From Bacillota bacterium (GTDB lineage: Bacteria; Bacillota; Dethiobacteria; DTU022; UBA8154), in assembly GCA_030656575.1 (NCBI GenBank), contig JAUSPO010000047.1, positions 3,030-67,029 on the forward strand: a DNA stretch of 64,000 nucleotides. Reading direction: 5' to 3'. This document shows, one piece after another, positions 945-30,227 of the stretch (positions are counted from its first letter, which is position 1; each line of letters starts with the position of its first letter). The notes under the pieces are model-generated. The model was not told the origin of the DNA and did not search any database. It worked only from the letters and a program-made list of their open reading frames with translations. The position numbers and the translations under genes were made by a program.

Positions 945-2789
945 TTGGATGTTTTCCCTTTGCAAGAAATCAGAAAAAGAGACGGAAGAATACTTCTATT
1001 TGATGCAGAAAAAATTACTCAGGCAATTTTTAAAGCAGCTAAAGCTGTTGGAGGGGAGAACTACTCACTAGCCCGGGATTTGACAAAAGATGTTATTAAT
1101 CATTTGCATGGGCTGAAATTGTCAGGATTGATTCCTACAGTGGAAGAGACTCAGGATGCAGTGGAAAAGGTTCTCATAGAAAAAGGACATGCCAGGACAG
1201 CTAAGGCCTATATTTTATACCGGGCAAAAAGGACTCGTATCAGAGATGCAAAGTCAGAACTAATGGACGTAGTAAAAGATATCCTGCTTGATGCAAATAT
1301 TCATGAAGAAAAAGAGAATAAGTATTCACCTCTGGAAAAAATGCACCAGATAGCCCTGGCGGCCAGTCAAAAATATTATCTTGATAACTTACTCCCACCA
1401 GAAATAGCGAATGCTCATCAAGGGGGGAGTTTTCAAATACAAAGTTTGGGTTATTACAGTAAAACGGTAGATTCTTTGCAAATAGAATTGTTACCTTTAC
1501 TTAAAAATGGATACGGAAGTGGGGAAAAAACTCCTCCTTCGGATCTCCTTACAGGGCTTTTACGAGCTGCATCTATAGTTCAAAAAAGTCGGAATGACAT
1601 CTATGGTGAACAGTCTTTCCCCTTTTTTGATACAGTTATTGCAGAAATGATGAGCGGTTTTAAAAGTAAGCCGCGTCAAGAGGAACTTTCTGAAGGCTTG
1701 GGGGAATTTATCTCTTACTTGAAGGAGCTCCCCTCTTTGAGATGCAGCCTGCAGGTGGGACTTGATACAACAGAAGACGGGAGAAAGATAACGAAGAATT
1801 TACTTCGCGAATTTTTGAAAAAAAAGAACGGGAACAACTCCATCCGGATTATTTTTCCCCTGAAAAAGGAGATAAATTTTTCAAAGGGAGATCCAAATTA
1901 TGATTTATACAGGCTGGCCCTTCAATCAGCTATTCGCACCGGAAATCCTTCATTTTTTTTCCTTGATACATCCTACAATACTTCCCTTGGGGCGGATATC
2001 TGTTATTTCAGCAATGGATTAAGAATAGCTGGAAACAGACAGGGCCCCTCCGGCGGGAAAAAAAGAGGGAACATTGCTTCTTTAACAATAAACCTGCCGA
2101 GGTTGGCTTTATCCGCTTTGGACGAAGAACTCTTTTTTGTGGAATTGGACCGTCTGTTAAGGTTAAGTGTGCGGCAGCTGCTGCACCGTTTTGAAGTATT
2201 GAGTTTACTGAAGTGCAGGGATTTACCCTTTTTAATGGGTGAAAAGCTTTACATGGGTAGTGAAAACCTCTCGCCTCATGATAGTATTAAAGAGTCACTC
2301 AAAAACGGTATCATTTCCCTGGGGTTTACCGGGCTGCCGGAGGCTGCCCGTTTCCTGGCCGCCGCAGAGCAAAAAGGAGAAAAGGAACACGGCTATCTGC
2401 CGTTAGCCTTAAAAATTGTGCGTCACATGTCAAAGAGGGTTAAATCTTTTGCTGATGAGTATGACATGAATATAGAACTTTTCGGTGCTGTAAGCAGCGA
2501 CAAATTAGAAGCCCTGGTGGAAAAAGACCGTAAAGATTTCGGGCAGGTCAAAGGTGTTACAGATAAGGATTTTTATAGTTCATCATTTATTCTATTTCAG
2601 GAAGATGAAGGTTTGGACAATAAAATTGTGGTGGAGGGTGAAATACATAAACATTGTACGGCAGGTTATTTAAGTAAAATGCTTTTAATTCCTGGAATTG
2701 ATATGGATGGAGCCGAAGATATCATGCAAAAAATGGCTAAAAGCCATATCGGTCATGTTTCCATCAGCACGTTCTATGAAGGTGGATGA
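945..2789 (+). CDS. ATP-cone-containing ribonucleotide-reductase-like protein (class III NrdD-like, atypical)
   Basis: N-terminal ATP-cone (KRDGRILLFDAEKITQAIFKA). An internal GKKRGNIASLTINLPRLAL segment resembles the NrdD GRxNxGVVTINLPRIAL motif (recalled from memory). The C-terminus has TAGYL where the glycyl-radical RxCGYL motif would be. Only 4 Cys in total and no CxxC...CxxC Zn site. No nrdG-like gene is adjacent. Confidence 0.45.
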   Translation: MDVFPLQEIRKRDGRILLFDAEKITQAIFKAAKAVGGENYSLARDLTKDVINHLHGLKLSGLIPTVEETQDAVEKVLIEKGHARTAKAYILYRAKRTRIRDAKSELMDVVKDILLDANIHEEKENKYSPLEKMHQIALAASQKYYLDNLLPPEIANAHQGGSFQIQSLGYYSKTVDSLQIELLPLLKNGYGSGEKTPPSDLLTGLLRAASIVQKSRNDIYGEQSFPFFDTVIAEMMSGFKSKPRQEELSEGLGEFISYLKELPSLRCSLQVGLDTTEDGRKITKNLLREFLKKKNGNNSIRIIFPLKKEINFSKGDPNYDLYRLALQSAIRTGNPSFFFLDTSYNTSLGADICYFSNGLRIAGNRQGPSGGKKRGNIASLTINLPRLALSALDEELFFVELDRLLRLSVRQLLHRFEVLSLLKCRDLPFLMGEKLYMGSENLSPHDSIKESLKNGIISLGFTGLPEAARFLAAAEQKGEKEHGYLPLALKIVRHMSKRVKSFADEYDMNIELFGAVSSDKLEALVEKDRKDFGQVKGVTDKDFYSSSFILFQEDEGLDNKIVVEGEIHKHCTAGYLSKMLLIPGIDMDGAEDIMQKMAKSHIGHVSISTFYEGG

Positions 2790-3622
2790 TGAAAATTAAT
2801 ACAATGGTAATAGCTGAAGCGGGTGGGATAACATATTTCTCTCTACCCTGTTGGGAAAAATGGGGCTTTTTAAAACATGGTTTTTCTTCCCGTAATGGGG
2901 GGGTAAGCAAGGGGCCTTTTGTTTCCCTTAACCTGGGTTTTCGGGGAGGTGACAGGTCTGAAGCGATACATGAGAATCGGAGAAGATTTTTGGGATTATG
3001 GGGTAAAAAAGAGGAAGATCTCATTTGCGGCGAACAGGTGCATGGGACAGAGGTTTTTCTGGTTAATGAGTCCTTTGCACGTGAAGCTAATGGTCAGATA
3101 CCTTCTACGGATGCACTCGTAACAGCTCAGCCTGGTATGCTGCTGGGGGCTTTTTCTGCGGACTGTCTCCTTGCGTTTTTTGTGGAACCTTCAGTGCCGG
3201 CGATAGGCCTCGCCCATGCAGGATGGCGGGGCACCTGTATGGGCATTTTCGATCGTGTAGTGAATGCTATGTGTTTGAACTTTGGAGCCAGGACGGATTC
3301 AATTGAGGTTTTACTTGCTCCTTCCATAGGAGCATGTTGTTATGAAGTGGGCAAAGAGGTCCTTGATATATTATCTGCTTCCCCTTGGAGAGAGGAAATA
3401 GTTCTCTGTCCAGGGACAAGACCGGGACATCCTTTTATGGATTTGCAGGAAACAAACTTTAATATTCTTTGTAAGGCTGGGATTAGGGCTGAAAATATTT
3501 TTAGAAGTGATTACTGCACCCACTGCAACCAGCACCTTTTTTACTCCTACAGGCGGGAGGGCGGAGGCCCGACAGGAAGTCAGATGGGTATAATCTTTTT
3601 GAACCAGGGTGGCAGTAAATGA
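2786..3622 (+). CDS. pgeF: peptidoglycan editing factor PgeF / YfiH-YlmD (DUF152, purine nucleoside phosphorylase-like)
   Basis: DUF152-family motifs (HGTEV..., SADCLL..., His/Cys residues). Start overlaps the upstream stop (ATGA). Occupies the classic ylmD position. Confidence 0.8.
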   Translation: MMKINTMVIAEAGGITYFSLPCWEKWGFLKHGFSSRNGGVSKGPFVSLNLGFRGGDRSEAIHENRRRFLGLWGKKEEDLICGEQVHGTEVFLVNESFAREANGQIPSTDALVTAQPGMLLGAFSADCLLAFFVEPSVPAIGLAHAGWRGTCMGIFDRVVNAMCLNFGARTDSIEVLLAPSIGACCYEVGKEVLDILSASPWREEIVLCPGTRPGHPFMDLQETNFNILCKAGIRAENIFRSDYCTHCNQHLFYSYRREGGGPTGSQMGIIFLNQGGSK

Positions 3623-8536: not shown

Positions 8537-8627
8537 GAATCCATGTCCTGCATCCGTATACATCCTTTTGTTTGACTATGGTTAAAATAAGTTTTATAAT
8601 AATTTAAAGTATTATAAATAAAAGCCA

Positions 8628-8910
8628 TGATCGGGAGAGTAGAGTGGTTTTTTTGCCTTTTAAGCGAGCCGGAAAGTGGTGGGAGACCGGTAAAGGCGGC
8701 CATATTGAAGATCACCCGGGAGTTCTTACTTTAAAAGCTCGTTAGTCTGTAATGTCTTAAATAAGTCATTCTTTCTGCGGCAAGTAGAAGTAAGCGTGAG
8801 ATTAGGCTGCGTTAAGCCGAAAGGGGTTATAGTTTAATTTCAGCTGTAACAACAAGGGTGGTACCGCGGGAAAATCTCGTCCCTGAGAGGCGAGATTTTA
8901 TTTTTTTTGT
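8628..8910 (+). promoter_or_regulatory. T-box riboswitch leader (Ile-specific) with intrinsic terminator
   Basis: Conserved T-box sequence AAGGGTGGTACCGCGG at 8854..8869. Terminator hairpin AAAATCTCGTCCC...GAGGCGAGATTTT plus a U-run at 8871..8909. A candidate AUC specifier lies in GAAGATCACC. Located upstream of ileS. Confidence 0.8.
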
Positions 8911-9008
8911 AAATAAAATATAAGGAGGTTAGAGCCTGGTTATTTATTTTATGGTGGGGGTCCTTGGAGAACTTAAGGTTTTGAGAGGATTGAACCAGGC
9001 GGTTGTTT

Positions 9009-11789
9009 ATGGATTACAGTACTACTTTAAATCTTCCAAAGACTGATTTTCCCATGAGAGCAGGGTTGCCGCAAAAGGAACCGGTGATACTTGAAAGATG
9101 GGAAAAGATGAATCTTTACCAGAAAATCAGGGAAAATAGAAAAGGAGCCCCGTCTTTTGTTCTTCACGATGGTCCACCTTATGCAAATGGCAATATCCAT
9201 ATGGGTACTGCTCTGAATAAGGTCCTAAAGGATATTGTTAACAAGTATAAATATATGAGGGGTTTTGATATACCATATGTTCCCGGATGGGATACCCATG
9301 GTCTTCCCATCGAACACCAGGTTATTAAGACAAAGAATATTAACAGGAATGAAGTGTCTCATCTGGAATTCAGGCGCATGTGCCGGGAATATGCCTTGAA
9401 TTTTCTTGATATTCAGAGGGAACAGTTTAAAAGGCTTGGTGTTGTGGCTGACTGGGATAATCCCTATATCACACTTGATCCTGCTTATGAAGCCAGCCAG
9501 ATAGGGGTATTCGGTCTTATGGCACAAAAAGGTTTTATCTATAAGGGATTAAAACCTGTTTACTGGTGTCCTGAATGTGAGACTGCCCTGGCGGAAGCAG
9601 AAATTGAATATGCCGAGCGTCGCTCTCCCTCCATATACGTAAAGTTTCCCGTAACAGATAATCTGGGAAAGTGGGATGAACAGTTTAGGCCTGCATATGT
9701 TCTTATCTGGACTACAACACCCTGGACAATTCCAGCCAACCTTGCTATCGCTTTGCATCCAAATCTTACTTATGTCCTTGTCAAAGTGGGAGAAGAGTAT
9801 TACCTTCTGGCTGAAGATCTCATGAAGGATGCATTTGGAATTATTGGGCTTAACCAGGGTGGCGAAGTTTGTAAGAAATTTAGAGGTGAGGAACTGGAAG
9901 GTATCATCTGCCGACACCCTCTTTATGAGCGTGAGTCCAGAGTCCTTCTTGCTGATTATGTTACTCTGGAGCAGGGAACAGGTTGTGTCCATACCGCTCC
10001 CGGTCATGGTCAGGAGGACTACGAAACAGGACTTCAGTACGACCTGCCTATTTATGCTCCTATGGACGGACGCGGTGTGTTTACTCCGGAAGCCGGTGAA
10101 TTTGCCGGTTTGCGTTACGATGAGGGCAACAAGGCGGTGACGGTTGCGCTGGAGAGGGAAAAGGTCCTTATGAATCTAACCTTTATCACACACCAGTATC
10201 CTCACTGCTGGCGCTGTAAAAAAGAAGTGATTTTTCGGGCTACTGAACAGTGGTTTGCTTCAATCCAGCTCTTTAGAGAAGATGCCTTAAAGGCAGTGAA
10301 AGAAGTAAATTGGATTCCCTCATGGGGGGAAGGGCGTATGAACAATATGATTGCTGATCGTCGTGACTGGTGTATTTCACGACAAAGGGTATGGGGCGTT
10401 CCGCTTCCCATCTTTTATTGCCTTGAATGTGGGGAACCTCTTTTAAGCGCTGAGAGTACAGCTGCTGTACAGGAATTATTTAAAAAAGAAGGTTCTGATG
10501 CCTGGTATAAGTATGAGGCGGATGAAATTTTAGGGGACCGGGCTGTATGTCCTTCCTGCGGCAAAGGAAGGTTTCGCAAAGAACAGGATATTATGGATGT
10601 CTGGTTTGATTCCGGTTCCAGTCATGAAGCTGTTCTCAATGCCAGAGAAGGTCTTTCCTGGCCTGCAGATCTCTACCTTGAGGGAAGTGACCAGTTTCGC
10701 GGTTGGTTCCAGTCTTCCCTGCTGACGGCCGTGGCCACAAATGGTAAACCTCCTTATCGTAATGTGTTAAGCCATGGATGGGTTGTAGACGGTGAGGGAA
10801 GGAAGATGTCCAAATCTCTTGGTAATGTTATTGCTCCGGATGATATCATTAAAAATTATGGCGCGGATGTTTTACGTCTCTGGGTGTTCAGTGCAGATTT
10901 TACCAGCGATATTCATCTTTCTAAGGATATATTGAAACAGCTTTCAGAAATTTATCGCAAAATACGTAATACCTGTAGATTTCTCCTGGGAAACTGTAAT
11001 GATTTTAGTCCTGAAGAAAACAGTGTTGACTATGAACATCTGGAAGAGATAGATCGCTGGGCGCTGCATCGTCTCTATAAATTAGTCCAAAAAACAACGA
11101 ACTCCTTTGAAAACTATGAATACCATCATATATTTCATGCTGTACATAACTTTGCCGTAGTGGATATGAGCAATTTTTATTTTGATATCATTAAAGACCG
11201 CCTTTATGTGCTGGATAAGGATTCTCCTTCCCGGAGAGCTGCTCAGACAGTTTTATCCAAGATACTTCAAACGCTTACACTTTTGATTTCTCCAGTCCTT
11301 TCTTTTACTGCGGAAGAAATCTGGTCTTATATTCCGTTTCAACAGGAAGAAAGCGTGATGTTGGCGTCATGGCCAGACTTATCGGCAGATTATGAGGATG
11401 GCGCTCTCGCCGGACGCTGGGATGTAATACTTCGCCTTCGGGAAGAAGTGAACCGGGTTCTTGAAACGGCCAGAAGAGAAAAAACAATAGGTTCTTCCCT
11501 TCAGGCTGCTGTTGATCTATATCCTGATGAGGAACTCTATAAGCAATTGGTGAGCTACAGTTCGTTTCTTCCAGCTTTGCTGATCGTTTCCTCCTGTCAA
11601 TTAAATAAACCTGACCTTAAAGCGGAAGGTGATTTTGTGGCGGCCGGGGAATTGGGGCTGAAGATTAAAGTTTCAAAAGCACCAGGAGAAAAATGCCAAC
11701 GTTGTTGGGTATATTCGCCCACTGTAGGTGAAAACAAAGAATATGAGATATGCTCCCGCTGTGGTGAGATACTCCAAAACATAAACTGA
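9009..11789 (+). CDS. ileS: isoleucine--tRNA ligase
   Basis: Class I aaRS with HMGH-type (PYANGNIHMGTAL) and KMSKS motifs and a C-terminal Zn-binding CxxC..CxxC. The ORF track starts at TTG 9003. An ATG at 9009 follows an AGGCGG Shine-Dalgarno sequence. Confidence 0.95.
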   Translation: MDYSTTLNLPKTDFPMRAGLPQKEPVILERWEKMNLYQKIRENRKGAPSFVLHDGPPYANGNIHMGTALNKVLKDIVNKYKYMRGFDIPYVPGWDTHGLPIEHQVIKTKNINRNEVSHLEFRRMCREYALNFLDIQREQFKRLGVVADWDNPYITLDPAYEASQIGVFGLMAQKGFIYKGLKPVYWCPECETALAEAEIEYAERRSPSIYVKFPVTDNLGKWDEQFRPAYVLIWTTTPWTIPANLAIALHPNLTYVLVKVGEEYYLLAEDLMKDAFGIIGLNQGGEVCKKFRGEELEGIICRHPLYERESRVLLADYVTLEQGTGCVHTAPGHGQEDYETGLQYDLPIYAPMDGRGVFTPEAGEFAGLRYDEGNKAVTVALEREKVLMNLTFITHQYPHCWRCKKEVIFRATEQWFASIQLFREDALKAVKEVNWIPSWGEGRMNNMIADRRDWCISRQRVWGVPLPIFYCLECGEPLLSAESTAAVQELFKKEGSDAWYKYEADEILGDRAVCPSCGKGRFRKEQDIMDVWFDSGSSHEAVLNAREGLSWPADLYLEGSDQFRGWFQSSLLTAVATNGKPPYRNVLSHGWVVDGEGRKMSKSLGNVIAPDDIIKNYGADVLRLWVFSADFTSDIHLSKDILKQLSEIYRKIRNTCRFLLGNCNDFSPEENSVDYEHLEEIDRWALHRLYKLVQKTTNSFENYEYHHIFHAVHNFAVVDMSNFYFDIIKDRLYVLDKDSPSRRAAQTVLSKILQTLTLLISPVLSFTAEEIWSYIPFQQEESVMLASWPDLSADYEDGALAGRWDVILRLREEVNRVLETARREKTIGSSLQAAVDLYPDEELYKQLVSYSSFLPALLIVSSCQLNKPDLKAEGDFVAAGELGLKIKVSKAPGEKCQRCWVYSPTVGENKEYEICSRCGEILQNIN

Positions 11790-15008: not shown

Positions 15009-16769
15009 TCACTGCTGTTTGATAGAATCAAGAATTTTCTTATGGGGTGTTACATAGATTGTTCTTTGTTTACTGTATGTAACCATGCCCGGCTTTGCGC
15101 CTGGTATACGGCGTACATTCTTAACAGGAGTATAATCTACGGGGACATTTGATGAATCTGCCCCACGACTAAAATAGGCTGCCAGATGGGCGGCTTCTTT
15201 TATTGTTTTTTCATGGGGGTTTTCCGATCTTACAATCACATGAGATCCGGGCATATCTTTCACATGAAACCAGAGGTCCGTTTTAATGGCAAAATGATGG
15301 ATGAGATAATCATTTTGCCTGTTATTGCGTCCAACAAAAATTTCTTCGCCCATGGAAGATATAAACTTACTGAGATTTGTTGAGCCAAATGAGGTATTTT
15401 TTTTGGTGCCATAATGTTTTTTTTCCACGGGCAGGTACCCGGTCTCAGCAAGCTCGTCCCTCACTTCACGAAGGGCCTGCAAATTTGATTGTTCCAGTGA
15501 GAAAAGAACAGTTTCAAGATAAGATATTTCATTTTGGGTCTGTTCCAGTTGTACTTTAATCATCTTTTCGCCCTGTTGTGCTTTGCGGTATTTTTTAAAG
15601 TAGCGCTGTGCATTTAAGGATGGAGATAATTGTGGGTCCAGGACTATTTTAACCTTCTCCCCGTGCTCACTGAAGACATTTTCCAGGAATATTTCACTTG
15701 ACTTTTCAGGTATTTGTTTTAAATTCATGAGGATTAGCTCCCCACACTGACGATAATAACCCGCTTCCCCTGTCTTCTCCAGCTCAGATAACTGGATTTT
15801 TTCTTTTTTCCTGAACTTTTTTAAAGCCTGTTCGCTGTTCCGGAAAAGGAAAGCTGACAAGTTCTCTTTTTCTTCTATTGTCTCCCTGTACTCATAAAAT
15901 TCATCCAGAAGGATGCTCACAGAATTAAATTTGCGTTTATGATTAGACGCAGTCTGCACAGTATTGATCACAGTATAATCAAGGGGTTTGCCCTCATGGT
16001 CATTAAGAAGTGTGGGTTCCCATTTTGATTCCTGGTAAGTTTGCAAAAAATCCTCCAGTTTCTTCCATAAAGGGAGCGATGCTTCCTCTGAGAGGAGTGG
16101 GGTTTGTGCTCTCCCGGCAATTTCCCTGGCTAAAAAAGGGCTTAACCCCTGTATATTCTCCAGGAGAAACTTGCTGGTAGGCTGCCCCTTAAGTCTCTCA
16201 ATTTCCTGATTAAAAAAATTGAAATTTAGTGCGTAGGGATGCAGTTTTTCCTGAGCGGGCGGCGGATGGTAGATGTGCCGGGGAAGAAGCGTTCTCATTC
16301 GATTTAACGAAGAAGATACAGGTTTTAAGGTGCCAAGGATAACCTGGTTACCTTCTTCGTCAGGGGTATCAAGGAGTAAAAGGTTGCTGTGCCGTCCCAT
16401 GATTTCTGCGGTAAGGGTTTTCTTCGCTTCTCTTCCACTTTCGTTTACAGCAGAAAAATGTAAAAAAAGAACCCTTTCCAGAGGAGGCTGTTCCAGAGAA
16501 ACAAGATACCCTCCGCTAAGATGCTTACGCAGCAGCATGCAGAAAGAAGGTGGGTTATCAGGATGGATGTAACGGCGGTTTGTAAAATTTATTCTTCCTT
16601 TATTTGTGTGAATTGAAAAGAAAAGAGGTCGTTTTTCTTCTCCTTTAAAATAGAAGATCATATCTGTGCTGTTTAACTGGTAAATTCGGCTGATCCTGTT
16701 CCCTGTTTTTATTAGTTTCTCTTCCAGTTCCTTTGAAACCGCGTTTAATACCAATGCATCAAAAGCCAT
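15009..16769 (-). CDS. rqcH: ribosome-associated quality control factor RqcH (NFACT / fibronectin-binding FbpA family)
   Basis: 586 aa on the - strand with NFACT-N (MAFDALVLNAV..), coiled-coil and NFACT-R domains. Confidence 0.85.
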   Translation of the reverse strand: MAFDALVLNAVSKELEEKLIKTGNRISRIYQLNSTDMIFYFKGEEKRPLFFSIHTNKGRINFTNRRYIHPDNPPSFCMLLRKHLSGGYLVSLEQPPLERVLFLHFSAVNESGREAKKTLTAEIMGRHSNLLLLDTPDEEGNQVILGTLKPVSSSLNRMRTLLPRHIYHPPPAQEKLHPYALNFNFFNQEIERLKGQPTSKFLLENIQGLSPFLAREIAGRAQTPLLSEEASLPLWKKLEDFLQTYQESKWEPTLLNDHEGKPLDYTVINTVQTASNHKRKFNSVSILLDEFYEYRETIEEKENLSAFLFRNSEQALKKFRKKEKIQLSELEKTGEAGYYRQCGELILMNLKQIPEKSSEIFLENVFSEHGEKVKIVLDPQLSPSLNAQRYFKKYRKAQQGEKMIKVQLEQTQNEISYLETVLFSLEQSNLQALREVRDELAETGYLPVEKKHYGTKKNTSFGSTNLSKFISSMGEEIFVGRNNRQNDYLIHHFAIKTDLWFHVKDMPGSHVIVRSENPHEKTIKEAAHLAAYFSRGADSSNVPVDYTPVKNVRRIPGAKPGMVTYSKQRTIYVTPHKKILDSIKQQ

Positions 16770-16958
16770 TTTTCCTCCTATTGGGGAGATTGTCTCCTAC
16801 CTTATTCTGGAAGACGATGAATTATCCCTATTCAGTATATCTGTTAAGAGCAGAAAAAACAAACATCTTTGTCACCCTTTTCCGGGCTGGTTCTTTTTTT
16901 TTGTTTGGGGGAATAAAAAAATAGTATGAGAATTCATCCATAGTTATTCTGTATAAGA

Positions 16959-17171
16959 GGTGGTGAGTCGCTGAAGCAGAGTCTCCAAGTTCAAGTGGCA
17001 GCTCTTAGCGGCTCAGCTCCGGCACTACGGCAGCTTCCCCGTGGGAACTCCCGTCCAGGTCGTCCACGGGTCTGCTGACGTCCTGTCAGCAGAGCTGCCT
17101 ACGTGCCTGCGCTTTGCCGAGAGCTTACAGCCTACTTGAACTAAGTCGTCTCTGCCACAGTGATCACCACC
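16959..17171 (-). repeat. GC-rich hairpin repeat, copy A (inverted orientation), termini GGTGGTGA...TCACCACC
   Basis: About 90% identical to the reverse complement of copy C at 30013..30227. Carries the CTGCTGACAGGACGTCAGCAG apical palindrome. About 58% GC in a roughly 40% GC genome. Confidence 0.75.
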
Positions 17172-17364
17172 TGGGCAGTAACGTAAGCGGTGGAAACATC
17201 TTTATAAAAATAGTTGTGTTCCGTAGGTTCATGTTAGTTAGTATGTCTTAACTTCGCTGCACAGGGTGTCAGTTTACGTTCTGCGCAATCTGTGGGAACA
17301 ATAGAGTATTATCCGTAACCGTCATTAAATAGTTTTGAACTTAGGGTCAAAGTTAGCAGAAGGG

Positions 17365-17618
17365 GGTGGTGAATGCTGTTGCCGGAATTAACTCTGTTTC
17401 TCCCGGCAAAAAAGCTCTTGGCGAAACGAAGGGCCGGAGGTGACCCTGCTGACAGGACGTCAGTAGGCCCGGCGACGACCTGGAGGGGAGTTCCGCCGGG
17501 GAAGTCATTTTTCAAGGTCTGGGGACACACCTCTTGCAGAGGAATGTCCCCTATGCCTGGAGTTGAGCCTTAGAGCTTTCCGCGAGAAACCGTTAATTCC
17601 GGCTCAGCATTCACCACC
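17365..17618 (+). repeat. GC-rich hairpin repeat, copy B (diverged, with about 60-nt insertion)
   Basis: Shares the termini, the CTGCTGACAGGACGTCAG core and the flanking GACGACCTGGAGGGGAGTTCC segment with copies A and C. Same orientation as C. Lies 160 nt upstream of the Ca-ATPase start. Confidence 0.7.
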
Positions 17619-17772
17619 TGGAGAACAAGAGCGTGGGGAATCATTTTCATATACTGTTGTGATTTGTAGGGACTTGGTGGTAATTATCAGGAGCCTGGAT
17701 CTTGATACAGTATATACAGACCAGTAGGATAGTGTATTTGACCGTACAAATGCTATGGATTGGTGGTGAATT

Positions 17773-20517
17773 ATGAAAAAATCAAGGTTATGGGCTATTT
17801 CACCGCTCAAGGAAGTTTATAACCATTTCAGGGTTGATCCGGGATATGGGATTAGTGAAACGGAAGCTCTTCAGCGATTAAAAAAATGGGGCACCAACAC
17901 AATCGAAGAGAAAAAAAGAAAAAGTGTTTTTGAAATTTTTCTTGATCAGTTCAGGGACTTTATGGTTTTAGTTCTCCTGGGAGCAACCTTGGTTTCCGGA
18001 TTGCTGCATGAGTACAGCGATGCCATAACTATTATTGTAATTGTGGTCTTAAACGCAGTCCTGGGCTTTATCCAGGAGTATAAGGCAGAACGTTCTTTTG
18101 AGGCGCTAAAAAGTCTTTCCGCACCCAGGGGTAAGGTGTTAAGGGAAGGGGGCCTAAAGGAGATTCCTGCTGAAGATGTTGTCCCTGGGGACGTAATTGA
18201 TGTCAGGGCAGGGGATCGTGTCTGTGCTGATATTCGTTTAATTCATACTGATGCTTTGATGGCAGATGAATCTCCACTTACAGGCGAATCGGTTGCTGTA
18301 GAAAAAGAAGACGCCACATTAAATTTTGTGCCTTCCTCTCCCGGAGACACTAAGAATATGGTATTTAGCGGAACTCTAATTATTAACGGGACAGGACGCG
18401 GTATTGCCGTTGCTACTGGTATGGAAACGGAAATGGGAAATATCGTTTCCCTCATTCAGGAGGTGGAAGTAAGTAGTACACCTCTGCAAAAAAGGCTGGC
18501 CAAACTGGGAAAGGTTCTGGTGCTAGCCTGTTTTGTTCTCTGCCTTTTTGTTGTGGTGATGGGTTTGTGGAGAGGTGAGGAATTATACAAGATGCTTATG
18601 GCGGGGATTTCACTGGCAGTGGCTGCCATTCCTGAAGGACTTCCTGCAATTGTTACCATATCTCTTGCGCTCGGAGTTCAGCGCATGGTCAAACGCAAAG
18701 CTATTGTTCGTCGTCTGCCTGCAGTAGAGACACTAGGTTGTGCTACGGTGATCTGTTCTGATAAAACTGGGACAATTACTCAAAATAAAATGACCGTAAA
18801 AAGTATCTATACAAACGGTGAATTCTGGAATGTAGAAGGAGAAGGTTATGAACTAAGCGGGATGTTTTACCAGGGGCATAAAAAAGTAGACGCTTCCGGA
18901 GAAGAGCATTTATCCAAAACGCTTCTTATTGGAGTCCTGTGCAATAATGCTCTTCTTGTCAAAAATGATCGGAGAATTACGCCTAAAAGTTTCGATAAGA
19001 GTGGAAAAGCAGAGGGAAATCCAACAGAGGCCGCCTTGTTAGTTTGTGCTGCAAAGGCCAATATTTGGAAGGAACAGCTTGAAGAAAGGTTTCCGAGGAT
19101 AAAAGAGTTTCCATTTAGTTCGGGAAGGAAGTGTATGTCGGTTCTCTGCCGTGAAGGGGAGAAGATTAACCTCTTTGTAAAGGGAGCCCCGGAACGCATT
19201 CTAAATATGTCTTCTTATATATTTGAAGACGGCAAAGTGAGGCCCCTGAGAGAGGAGCACCGTAAAAAAATTCTTAAACAGGTAGATATTTTGGCTGGCG
19301 GTGCATTAAGAACCCTGGCCGTGGCTTACAGGACAGTTCCCTCCAGTGCGTTGTCATCAGGTGCAGATGAACTTGAAAAAGAGCTTGTTTTTACGGGGTT
19401 CTTCGGTATGATCGATCCCCCCCGTCCTGCCGTTTTAAAAGCTATTAAAAGCTGTGATCGTGCCGGAATTCGTATTACTATGATTACTGGTGACCACAGA
19501 AATACGGCTGTGGCAATCGCCAGGCAAATCGGTATTCTTAAATCAGGCGGAGAAGTGATTACAGGCGATGAGCTTGATCGGTTAAACGAAAAAGAACTTT
19601 TCGGCAGAATAGAAAAACTATATGTCTTTGCCAGAGTCAGTCCCGAACATAAACTGCGTATTGTACGCTGCTTAAAAGCCAGGGGTCATATTGTGGCCAT
19701 GACTGGTGACGGCGTTAATGATGCGCCAGCTGTAAAAGAGGCCGATATAGGCATTGCCATGGGTTCAACAGGAACAGAAGTTACGAAAGAGGCGGCATCA
19801 CTAGTTTTGGCTGATGATAATTTTAAAACTATTGTAGCTGCAGTGGAAGAGGGTAGGGGTATTTACGATAACATCCGCAAGTTTATCAGGTTTCTCCTTG
19901 GTTGTAACCTTGGAGAAATTCTTACCATGTTTCTGGCTATGTTATGGGGGCTGCCTCTTCCTTTACGCCCTATACAGATTCTCTGGGTTAATTTGGTAAC
20001 TGATGGTCTTCCGGCTATGGCTCTAGGGGTGGATCCCACTGAAAAGGATGTAATGCAACGACCGCCCCGCTCTCCGTCAGAAGGTGTTTTTGGAAGGGGT
20101 TTATGGAAAAAAATTCTGACTAAGGGGTTTATTATTGGGGTTACCTCTGTTCTGGTCTTTGCTTTTGCTCTGATTACTTCATCCGAGCTTATTTATGCCC
20201 AGACGATGGCTCTTTCAACCTTGATTGTAACCCAGCTTCTACACGTTTTTGAATGTCGCTCCGAATATCTGAAAGTCTGGGAGGTTGGTTTCACACGTAA
20301 TCTTATGCTTGTTGGGGCTGTTGTTGTATCTTTCTTCCTCTTACTGTGTATTGTATATAATCCTTTCCTTCAGTCTGTATTCCAGACTTATCCTCTAAAG
20401 GGCAGTGATTGGATTATTATTTTTGGAGCTTCTTCCATAACATATGTATTGAGTTTCCTTTCTTGGTGTATTGGAAAAGCAATTTACAGGGAGACTGGTC
20501 AGATTATCTCTAAATAA
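17773..20517 (+). CDS. P-type (P2-type) Ca2+-transporting ATPase
   Basis: DKTGTIT phosphorylation motif, TGDGVNDAPA hinge, 10 predicted TM segments, 914 aa. Confidence 0.85.
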   Translation: MKKSRLWAISPLKEVYNHFRVDPGYGISETEALQRLKKWGTNTIEEKKRKSVFEIFLDQFRDFMVLVLLGATLVSGLLHEYSDAITIIVIVVLNAVLGFIQEYKAERSFEALKSLSAPRGKVLREGGLKEIPAEDVVPGDVIDVRAGDRVCADIRLIHTDALMADESPLTGESVAVEKEDATLNFVPSSPGDTKNMVFSGTLIINGTGRGIAVATGMETEMGNIVSLIQEVEVSSTPLQKRLAKLGKVLVLACFVLCLFVVVMGLWRGEELYKMLMAGISLAVAAIPEGLPAIVTISLALGVQRMVKRKAIVRRLPAVETLGCATVICSDKTGTITQNKMTVKSIYTNGEFWNVEGEGYELSGMFYQGHKKVDASGEEHLSKTLLIGVLCNNALLVKNDRRITPKSFDKSGKAEGNPTEAALLVCAAKANIWKEQLEERFPRIKEFPFSSGRKCMSVLCREGEKINLFVKGAPERILNMSSYIFEDGKVRPLREEHRKKILKQVDILAGGALRTLAVAYRTVPSSALSSGADELEKELVFTGFFGMIDPPRPAVLKAIKSCDRAGIRITMITGDHRNTAVAIARQIGILKSGGEVITGDELDRLNEKELFGRIEKLYVFARVSPEHKLRIVRCLKARGHIVAMTGDGVNDAPAVKEADIGIAMGSTGTEVTKEAASLVLADDNFKTIVAAVEEGRGIYDNIRKFIRFLLGCNLGEILTMFLAMLWGLPLPLRPIQILWVNLVTDGLPAMALGVDPTEKDVMQRPPRSPSEGVFGRGLWKKILTKGFIIGVTSVLVFAFALITSSELIYAQTMALSTLIVTQLLHVFECRSEYLKVWEVGFTRNLMLVGAVVVSFFLLLCIVYNPFLQSVFQTYPLKGSDWIIIFGASSITYVLSFLSWCIGKAIYRETGQIISK

Positions 20518-29413: not shown

Positions 29414-30011
29414 ATGGGTGGTTTGTGGTTTTTTGATACGGGGTTTATCATTTTCCTTATCCCTGCCATGTTTTTTGCCATGTATGCCCAGAATAGGGTG
29501 AAAAGCGCCTATGTGCGCTACAGTAGAATTCGTGGCAGTAACCTTGTTTCCGGATCGCAGGTAGCGAGATCGCTTCTTAATGATGCAGGATTGGAGCATA
29601 TCAAAGTTGTGCAGACGGATGGTCATTTGACAGACCATTACGATCCTCGTCAGAAAGTGGTCCGCCTGTCACCCCAGGTTTTTCGTGATAACTCCCTGGC
29701 TGCCATTGGCATAGCTGCCCATGAGGTTGGTCATGCCTTGCAGCATGACGACGGTTATGCTCCCCTTGGCATCCGTAATTCTATTGTTCCCCTGGCCAGC
29801 TTCGGCTCCAGGGCTGCTTTTCCCCTCTTCTTTATTGGCTTATGCCAGCAGGCGGGCCGTTGCCTTACTGGAAAGCGGGGCTTTCCTTCAGGGAGAGGAA
29901 CTGACAGGAGCAAAAAAGGTTCTTAATGCAGCAGCTTTAACTTACGTAGCCGCTTTGGCGGTTTCATTGGCTCACCTTTTTCGGATGCTGTTGTTAAGAG
30001 GAAGAGATTGA
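29414..30011 (+). pseudogene. zinc metallopeptidase (Zn_peptidase_2 / YugP-like) disrupted by a frameshifting internal deletion
   Basis: Frame 1 (29414..29926) encodes the N-terminal TM segment and the HEVGHALQH motif. The expected C-terminus (ASRRAVALLESGAFLQGEELTGAKKVLNAAALTYVAA) is encoded in a different frame (29721..30011). About 25 codons of the central TM region appear to be missing. Confidence 0.6.
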
Positions 30012-30012
30012 A

Positions 30013-30227
30013 GGTGGTGATCGCTGTTGGCAGAGACGACTTGGTTCAAGGAGGCCATAAGCTCTCGGCAAAGCGTAGGCACGAAGGTAACTCTGCTGAC
30101 AGGATGTCAGCAGGCCCGTGGACGACCTGGATGGGAGTTCCCACGGGGAAGTTGCCGTAGTGCCGGAGCTGAGCCGTTAAGAGCTGGCCACTTGAATTTG
30201 GAGACTCTGCTTCAGCGACTCACCACC
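30013..30227 (+). repeat. GC-rich hairpin repeat, copy C (reference orientation), termini GGTGGTGATCGCTG...CAGCGACTCACCACC
   Basis: 215-nt imperfect palindrome centred on CTGCTGACAGGATGTCAGCAG. It starts 1 nt after the disrupted metallopeptidase and ends 25 nt before the rsmB ATG. Confidence 0.75.

Follow-up and report, generated by a model that had tools for sequence, protein, structure and literature searches.

Why should the spacer between two divergent genes in a metagenome-assembled genome (MAG) of a Bacillota bacterium be five times longer than in its relatives? The question arises in a 64,000-nt stretch of contig JAUSPO010000047.1 (the window), in which rqcH and a P-type cation ATPase gene are separated by 1003 nt (16770-17772) containing two GC-rich islands (52-60% G+C versus a background of ~40%). 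A first-pass annotation had placed in this spacer two inverted repeat copies, here termed A and B, 193 nt apart within a 660-nt unit, and the coordinates bear this out. It had also proposed that the ends of the copies mimic a Shine-Dalgarno (SD) sequence and the 3' end of 16S rRNA, and that the copies control the ATPase gene or were inserted at an SD sequence by choice. We find that A and B are members of a lineage-specific, previously undescribed family of non-coding, GC-rich interspersed repeats, and that the 1-kb spacer is an ordinary ~200-nt spacer inflated by two insertions. We consider it probable that the two copies stem from a new mosaic family of hairpin repeats, akin to miniature inverted-repeat transposable elements (MITEs) and bacterial interspersed mosaic elements (BIMEs) and mobilized in trans, and do not form an ATPase switch.

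The constant module of the family is an imperfect palindrome of 213-274 nt, of which a single strand folds into a rod of 70-95 bp, closed by GGTGG.../...CCACC and capped by a three-way junction with two small hairpins. This agrees with the earlier notion of a discrete element whose two ends pair. Three copies, A, B and C, lie in the window, and each is bracketed by the 8-mer GGTGGTGA and its complement TCACCACC (16959 and 17164-17171 in A; 17365 and 17611-17618 in B). The 8-mer GGTGGTGA occurs nine times in the window against 1.45 expected; six of these occurrences are element ends, and two others are coding Gly-Gly codons. A and B stand in opposite orientation, with central 93-nt segments that are 81% reverse-complementary, B being a diverged relative of A (about 76% column identity) with a 41-nt extra stretch that includes a 31-nt hairpin. 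Copy C is ~93% identical to the reverse complement of A. A flip-flop inversion of the tip only, of the parvovirus terminal hairpin type, was considered for A versus C and rejected: the 5' arm of A is the reverse complement of the 3' arm of C (98%), and so the whole element is inverted between the two. The minimum free energies (MFE) of A, B and C are -122, -145 and -126 kcal/mol, with z-scores of -9.3, -9.1 and -9.9 against shuffled sequences, and all full copies of the family, including additional ones at -7.8, -7.2 and -6.4, fall between -6.4 and -9.9. No conserved open reading frame (ORF) was found among the copies, the 66-aa ORF of B being missing from A and C and having no Pfam match. A coding role for the ORFs in B (17373-17573, plus strand; 17309-17530, minus strand) was rejected, as they have no Pfam match and the ATG is missing from A and C; an intrinsic terminator was rejected as well, a T-run being absent after every rod.

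The rod is maintained by compensatory change along its whole length. Between subfamilies, the arms are 46-70% identical, while the 58-62-nt core is 63-95% identical. Hairpin 2 consists of 8 bp and a pentaloop; in hairpin 1, a stem of 7-8 bp leads through an internal loop to a short tip. Covariation is seen in both stems, as in CGTGG/CCACG, CGGCG/CGCCG and TGGCA/TGCCA. For the covariation analysis, six full copies were aligned by MAFFT on sequence only, and base pairs were accepted when two or more of the six single-copy MFE folds agreed on them; this vote was adopted because RNAalifold on the plain MAFFT alignment gave only the tip. In this structure 83.9% of cells are paired, versus 34-44% after a shift of the 3' partners by 1-3 columns, the former percentage being inflated because the structure was taken from the same sequences. 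This bias bears less on the excess of double-sided changes, which are present in 33 of 76 pairs versus 7-11 after shifting, and no shuffle out of 500 matched the observed pairing, double-change or covariation values. The ends read GGTGG(T/C)GA...TC(A/G)CCACC in A, B and C and in copies D2, H, E and I of related genomes (Table 1), F having diverged to GGTTGAT...CAACC.

The tip loops are the most uniform part of the element. On the strand that we call S (plus for B and C, minus for A), the tip of hairpin 1 is GGAN in all nine copies that retain it, N being C, G, U, U, U, U, G, A and C. The loop of hairpin 2 is AGGAC, AGGAU, UAGGAU or AUGGAAG in eight of nine copies, and GGG in the decayed copy D1. 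The two GGA motifs are ~24 nt apart, as measured in C, and in some copies (B, D2) the hairpin-1 tip contains a perfect GGAGG or GGAGGUGA. On the complementary strand these loops read UCC or CCUCC, which is anti-SD-like.

Several sites that hold a rod in one genome are empty in close relatives. The junction between a Zn-peptidase gene and rsmB, which holds C in the window, is 19 nt long and rod-free in three relatives (L007, L008 and L009; RsmB 92% identical), reading GAGATTAATATAAGTAGGAGTGAGTAAATG. The corresponding window sequence is GAGATTGA(AGGTGGTGA...TCACCACC)CCATTACATAAGTAGGAGTGAGTAAATG, and comparison of the filled and empty junctions gives an inserted unit of the rod plus ~9 nt. Copy C sits right after the stop codon, and the rsmB SD is unchanged. 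The empty-site relative L008 and the rod-bearing contig L006 come from one JGI sample. Two further relatives, L003 and L004, are 89% identical over 17.9 kb, and only L004 carries rods, three in number: the rqcH-ATPase spacer is 204 nt in L003 versus 652 nt in L004, and the spacer between ileS and a DUF5665 gene is 107 nt versus 425 nt. The rqcH-ATPase spacer is likewise rod-free, at 177-220 nt, in L003, L016, L017 and L018 together. Because A and B lie to the right of the native T-run block GGTTCTTTTTTTTT of this spacer, while the L004 copies lie to its left, the two pairs are independent insertions. Between priA and def, the spacer is 21-24 nt in L010 and the window, whereas in L019 remnants of rods and tails fill more than 540 nt.

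Rods are probably also lost. L002 (RqcH 86% identical) is without rod A and retains a homologue of the distal tail that follows it, and its junction lies at the 11-nt repeat ATAAAAATAGT that flanks A in the window; the site more probably records a deletion than an original lack of the rod. Depending on the choice of boundary, the candidate target duplication at A is ATAGTT, present on each side of A plus its linker, or the 11-nt ATAAAAATAGT, and the H and D sites are too diverged to be compared.

The native block itself merits a separate observation. Within 16860-16930, the arrangement AAGCAAACATCTTT ... stem ... GGTTCTTTTTTTTT(G)...GGAATA(T/A) is kept in L003, L004, L016, L017, L018 and L002, the remaining spacer having diverged; on the ATPase strand, 5' of the ATPase gene, it has the look of a stem-loop with a T-run, terminator- or attenuator-like.

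The family extends beyond this spacer, within a narrow set of genomes. With an nhmmer profile of five full-length rods (A, B, C, D2 and F), additional copies came up in only a few related assemblies (L004, L006, L017 and L019). The loci of the family are unrelated to one another: besides the rqcH-ATPase spacer, they include Zn-peptidase/rsmB (copy C), ileS/DUF5665, downstream of rqcH and upstream of def. In GTDB representative genomes, the core motif GGAACTCCCNTCCAGGTCGTC (20 specified bases) had a single match, in Mycolicibacterium palauense (L001, 7042-7143). It was set aside as a chance match in high-GC DNA, having an nhmmer E of 3e-4 over 56 nt and no rod around it. A gapped pattern gave one true match in a scan of JGI metagenomes, L006, and a chance match in high-GC coding sequence, L005. 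Scans of viral contigs with two patterns gave no match, nor did blastn of A against plasmids or of B against phages. Rfam at gathering score over the whole window matched only T-box leaders, away from the rods; at E <= 10 on 16700-17850 it returned only snoRNA and lncRNA noise, and on L004, L006 and L017 it gave no relevant match. Logan contigs retrieved for the source organism, all short, are without rods, and literature searches on Dethiobacter repeats and on Firmicutes MITEs with SD-like ends gave no match. Truncated rod halves, and assembly breaks within rods, are common: the contigs of L006 (end at position 1), L017 (end at position 1) and L019 (positions 1-45) break inside a rod or tail. 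Rods thus fragment the short-read assemblies of this clade and are probably under-represented in MAGs and collection scans. The closest named relatives of the window's RsmB are "Dethiobacteria bacterium" MAGs (70-74% identity), and the carrier clade is an uncultured lineage of Bacillota, probably Dethiobacteria.

The rod is combined with other short modules. In H and K2, at different loci, it is followed by a tail of ~85 nt, TTTGCGGGACAYAATACGG...CATTTTCATCC...GTGACC-loop-GGTCGTGGYGGTTAG, and diverged tails follow A, B and E; linker and tail together span ~70-85 nt and have a small hairpin of their own. The tail after A is homologous to those of H, K2 and K3. A hidden Markov model (HMM) of the tail had no significant match away from rods, three other matches lying at E >= 0.13. 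C is a rod alone, whereas A, B, H, K2 and E are rod, linker and tail; K3 has a 5' arm joined straight to the tail, and an extra hairpin, GGGGACA...TGTCCCC, occurs only in B, G and K1. The independent 5' halves G and J both end at hairpin 1 and 15-45 nt beyond each lies a full copy that points the same way. Read along the plus strand, A has the model and B the S orientation, yet each is followed by a tail; the rod core can thus face either way with respect to the tail. Rods may insert next to tails in either direction, or a rod could flip by recombination between its arms. Short modules thus recur in varied combinations, as in BIME and BOX elements, and the modularity and decay of the family resemble such mosaics. 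As a separate observation, downstream of the tail of H (L004 14881-14905, minus strand) a tandem motif GTGACTTTTGACCTTGGACTTTTGACCTTAGAC lies in the inserted DNA and is missing from the empty site in L003.

Table 1. Features of the rqcH-ATPase spacer, rod copies of the window and copies in related assemblies (positions are those of the window unless an assembly is named).
Feature	Position	Strand	Description
Rod copy A	16959-17171 (213 nt)	+ ('model' orientation)	ends GGTGGTGAGTC...GATCACCACC; nhmmer 198 bits
Rod copy B	17365-17618 (254 nt)	+	ends GGTGGTGAATGC...GCATTCACCACC; nhmmer 184 bits; subfamily differs from A; core inverted versus A
Rod copy C	30013-30227 (215 nt)	+	between Zn-peptidase stop (30009-30011) and rsmB start (30253)
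Apical core of A	17034-17092	+	hairpin 1 CCCCGTGG(GAACTCCCGTCCAGGTCGT)CCACGGG; hairpin 2 CTGCTGAC(GTCCT)GTCAGCAG; three-way junction with rod
Apical core of B	17446-17504	+	hairpin 2 loop AGGAC; hairpin 1 tip CCUGGAGGGG
Extra hairpin module	17521-17551	+	GGGGACACACCTCTTGCAGAGGAATGTCCCC; also in G (L006) and K1 (L019)
Linker and diverged tail after A	17172-17250	+	tail HMM E = 5e-9 at 17193-17245
Linker and tail after B	17619-17690	+	...ATCATTTTCATATACTGTTGTGATTTGTAGGGACTTGGTGGTAATTATC; tail HMM E = 4e-10 at 17638-17689
Tail-like fragment touching left end of A	16930-16958	+	GAGAATTCATCCATAGTTATTCTGTATAAGA; direct reading
GGTTCTTTTTTTTT block	16889-16902	+	native spacer sequence outside the element; present in rqcH-ATPase spacers of all relatives
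ATPase SD region	17762-17771	+	GGTGGTGAAT, equal to first 10 nt of B; complementary to last 10 nt of B
rqcH (NFACT domains)	15009-16769	-	
P-type cation ATPase gene	17773-20517	+	ATG at 17773
Copies D1, D2 and H	L004 (GCA_020060185.1)		D1 (decayed) and D2 in rqcH-ATPase spacer; H between ileS and DUF5665 gene
Copies E, F and G	L006 (1-kb JGI contig)		G, 5' half; F, long full copy; E, cut by contig end
Copies I and J	L017 (GCA_003444595.1)		J, 5' half; I, cut copy; downstream of rqcH
Copies K1-K3	L019 (JGI 3300038436)		three partial copies with tails, upstream of def

These results suggest that the rods are most likely selfish mobile DNA. We propose that, in some members of the clade, rods entered many intergenic sites, with partial deletion afterwards, and that they would be mobilized in trans by a purely postulated enzyme. 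In the reading that we prefer, such an enzyme would recognize the folded single strand (single-stranded DNA, possibly RNA) and not duplex terminal repeats, and would leave no target duplication, given the compensatory pairing along the rod, the tip loops as its most conserved part and the lack of a consistent target-site duplication. Effects on neighbouring genes would then be side effects of co-transcription, by which a stable RNA rod, predicted to be a likely RNase III substrate, would be placed in the transcript; the 3' end of B could occlude the ATPase SD as a side effect only, and an incidental effect on ATPase expression is possible.

Several points weigh against this proposal. Neither the window nor any fetched locus showed a transposase or another candidate gene for mobilization. 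Copy C provides the only clean filled/empty pair, and its site shows at best a doubtful 3-nt ATT duplication with adjacent mismatches; at the other sites, filled and empty alleles differ beyond the rod, and the boundaries are uncertain. The sample, ~14 copies from five assemblies, is small. In six of six full copies, the predicted fold of the S strand is more stable than that of the other strand by 4.5-19 kcal/mol, which leaves room for an RNA function, and covariation cannot distinguish single-stranded DNA from RNA. Finally, a purely selfish element explains neither the invariant GGA/UCC loops nor the 10-nt identity between the end of B and the ATPase SD GGTGGTGAAT.

How well do other explanations fare? 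The family could consist of classical DDE-type MITEs, whose GGTGG(T/C)GA ends serve as duplex terminal inverted repeats for the transposase of a related insertion sequence (IS) elsewhere in the genome; their transposition, cut-and-paste or copy-and-paste, would create a short target duplication, and the rod would be a by-product of fusing similar ends. The conserved inverted termini and both insertion orientations are what such elements would show, as are copies that are short, non-coding, intergenic, truncated and polymorphic in presence, at three in the window and 2-3 each in L004, L006, L017 and L019. Duplications are possible at C (ATT) and around A plus linker (ATAGTT), but they are imperfect and unequal in length and sequence. 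Moreover, it is the middle of the element, the hairpin tip, that is most conserved, and not its ends; binding of duplex ends does not require compensatory changes through a 70-95-bp rod; and no parent IS was found, pattern scans of GTDB representatives and JGI metagenomes having given one true extra locus. We therefore regard this explanation as unlikely, though it retains some weight. It is unlikely, too, that the rods are a multiplied functional RNA module, whose S strand would present GGA loops of the CsrA/RsmA type as a protein or ribosome decoy or as a local translational regulator, or whose other strand would present anti-SD-like UCC/CCUCC loops comparable to C-rich loops of small RNAs (sRNAs). 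Such a module would account for a GGA that is invariant at the hairpin-1 tip while the following base takes all four values, for a second GGA loop whose one exception is the degenerate D1 (at least two loops, at dimer-compatible spacing), for covarying stems below both loops, for the perfect GGAGG or GGAGGUGA tips of B and D2 and for the folding advantage of the S strand; C, inside an operon, is almost certainly co-transcribed in S orientation. However, orientation relative to the flanking genes is mixed: the S strand of C is co-directional with them, that of H and I is opposite, so that these two would be transcribed antisense to S, and A, B, D1 and D2 lie in divergent spacers. The wobble counts (23 G.T versus 15 A.C cells) favour neither strand, shared ancestry means that the asymmetry in six of six copies is not six independent observations, no promoter or terminator linked to the rods was seen, and many copies are truncated or decayed like junk. 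With mixed orientation, neutral wobble counts and non-independent copies, a strand-specific RNA lacks clear support. Another reading combines mobility with binding: the rod would be a mobile structured module whose three-way-junction tip, with its GGA (or UCC) loops, is the ligand of a cellular factor, candidates being CsrA, the 30S subunit with its anti-SD, or a new hairpin-specific recombinase. The GGA pair has the geometry of a dual CsrA site and is also an SD mimic, and the loops could equally be recognition sites of the mobilizing enzyme; we hold the reading as a cellular ligand to be speculative and rather improbable.

The idea that the SD/anti-SD-like ends are themselves functional, with A and B controlling the ATPase gene by SD sequestration or by RNase III-cut double-stranded RNA, or with insertion targeted to SD sequences, has several sequence features in its favour. 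The window termini AAGGTGGTGA and TCACCACCT are one mismatch from the canonical SD (AAGGAGGTGA) and the 16S 3' end (UCACCUCCUU), and the resemblance originally noticed therefore stands, although its details change: read on the plus strand, A runs from GGTGGTGAGTC to GTGATCACCACC and B from GGTGGTGAATGC to GCATTCACCACC, and GGTGGTGATC is the plus-strand start of C. The SD-like GGTGGTGAAT of the ATPase gene is also present, one position to the left of the 17763 first given for it. Over 10 nt, AUUCACCACC at the 3' end of B is a perfect complement of this SD, and the two pair in the MFE structure once the B 5' arm is omitted; the window SD equals the B terminus, unlike the GGGGAG or GGGAGGAG of L003, L016, L017 and L018. 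A larger A-spacer-B structure, as once suggested, is feasible: for plus-strand RNA of 16940-17790, the global MFE is -371 versus -346 kcal/mol for the sum of local folds. In the models, this A:B advantage of ~25 kcal/mol would be expected of any inverted palindrome pair, and local hairpins should form first during transcription. In a complete rod, moreover, the 3' end already pairs with its own 5' end. The termini vary within the family (GGTGGCGAAGG in D2, H and I; GGTTGATAAATG in F), so only GGTGG is conserved, and GGAG-type SDs predominate in the host (of 56 crude ORF calls, 21 have GGAG and 4 have GGTGG upstream); SD/anti-SD mimicry as the point of the element is hence not supported. Nor is a role as dedicated ATPase regulator, as the same rod lies at unrelated loci in both orientations and the ATPase spacers of four relatives are rod-free. 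C, which landed after a stop codon and spared the adjacent rsmB SD, gives no sign of insertion targeted to SD sequences. A promoter scan found as its only plus-strand match 17702-17730, downstream of B and no better than chance. Overall, we consider functional SD-like ends very improbable. A last alternative, that the copies are assembly artefacts or chance palindromes in a MAG, would fit the source of the sequence and the frequent position of rods at contig ends. It is scarcely credible, as related copies occur in independent NCBI, JGI and ENA/Logan assemblies within otherwise collinear loci, and all copies have z-scores of -6 to -10 with compensatory changes.

Around the ATPase start, the SDs of the four relatives lie at the same position as in the window, which makes this position ancestral. 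The start region TTGGTGGTGAATTAT (17762-17776) is closely like the end of the tail after B, TTGGTGGTAATTAT (17675-17690), and a fragment of a tail may have given rise to the ribosome-binding site of the ATPase gene, though the resemblance spans a stretch too short for statistics. In L019, a tail stops 5 nt before the def SD.

The surroundings of the rods are a conserved housekeeping region with a T-box leader, ileS, rqcH, the ATPase gene, priA, def, fmt, rsmB, polA and ftsY. The T-box leader (8618-8887; Rfam RF00230, 104.9 bits) lies 5' of ileS (9003-11789), a layout shared by L004 (18079-18337). The Zn_peptidase_2 gene before copy C is split into overlapping frames at 29414-29926 (Pfam profile positions 2-137) and 29721-30011 (166-216), whereas its orthologues in L007 and L008 are unbroken at 236 aa; either a frameshift (pseudogene) or a MAG assembly error accounts for the split. 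In L004, SpoIIM and CoaBC are separated by an AT-rich stretch of ~430 nt (2640-3077) with two small called ORFs (41-42 aa). In L003, 89% identical, the two genes overlap and the stretch is missing; it is not related to the rods.

Hairpin-forming repeats and MITEs are known from several bacteria, among them Correia/NEMIS in Neisseria, ERIC/IRU in enterobacteria, RUP in S. pneumoniae and bcr1 in the B. cereus group. Like these, the rods are short, non-coding, multi-copy and intergenic, sometimes within operons, with inverted termini, a hairpin in the transcript, presence/absence polymorphism and truncated copies. Unlike them, the rod is about twice the length of most (213-274 nt) and is paired over its full length, with family-wide compensatory changes and the tip junction as its most conserved part, and it comes without a consistent target duplication or an identified parent IS. 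BOX elements of Streptococcus pneumoniae are modular (boxA-boxB-boxC). Like them, the rods are modular (rod and tail, with an extra hairpin as an option), lie near gene starts and have a predicted RNA structure that is stable, but the sequences are unrelated, and the self-complementary module of the rod is much longer. RNAs of the CsrB/RsmZ type are encoded by single-copy sRNA genes with their own promoter and terminator and carry many GGA hairpins that sequester CsrA. The rods resemble them, so far as sequence can tell, in having GGA in adjacent hairpin loops at a spacing compatible with a CsrA dimer; they differ in having two GGA loops on a mobile rod, for which promoter and terminator were not found.

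A further parallel is provided by repetitive extragenic palindromic (REP) sequences, BIMEs and the REPIN-RAYT system, palindromic extragenic hairpin repeats that occur singly, in inverted pairs, in clusters and in mosaics (PMC3116915, PMC3337134). REPINs are thought to be moved as single-stranded hairpins, without target duplication, by a single-copy HUH/Y1 transposase (PMC3116915, PMC3337134), and are defined as two short REP sequences, inverted and forming a hairpin (PMC3337134). The rods, too, are hairpin palindromes found singly, in inverted pairs and in clusters, in mosaic with short motifs. They differ from REPINs in that each is one continuous unit of ~215 nt with a branched tip and not a doublet of short REP sequences, and a RAYT gene was not seen in the window or the fetched loci. 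REPINs are known mainly from Proteobacteria.

The family is noteworthy for its unusually long hairpin, for compensatory pairing over 70-95 bp and for a conserved branched tip, in an uncultured host lineage without described repeats. It shows how rod insertions explain a spacer five times longer than in relatives, and it cautions against inferring gene-specific regulation from a repeat. As rods break short-read assemblies, they also matter for the quality of MAGs from this clade. If the family were tied to a particular transposase, it would be a Firmicute counterpart to the long-term association of repeat and host in REPIN-RAYT. If the GGA loops bind CsrA or ribosomes, the rods would be an example of mobile post-transcriptional control modules. 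Should the tip indeed be the ligand of a cellular factor, the ATPase SD GGTGGTGAAT would exemplify a ribosome-binding site that is derived from, or matched to, the element and open to masking by the 3' end of B, and the spread of rods would rewire the post-transcriptional control of host operons.

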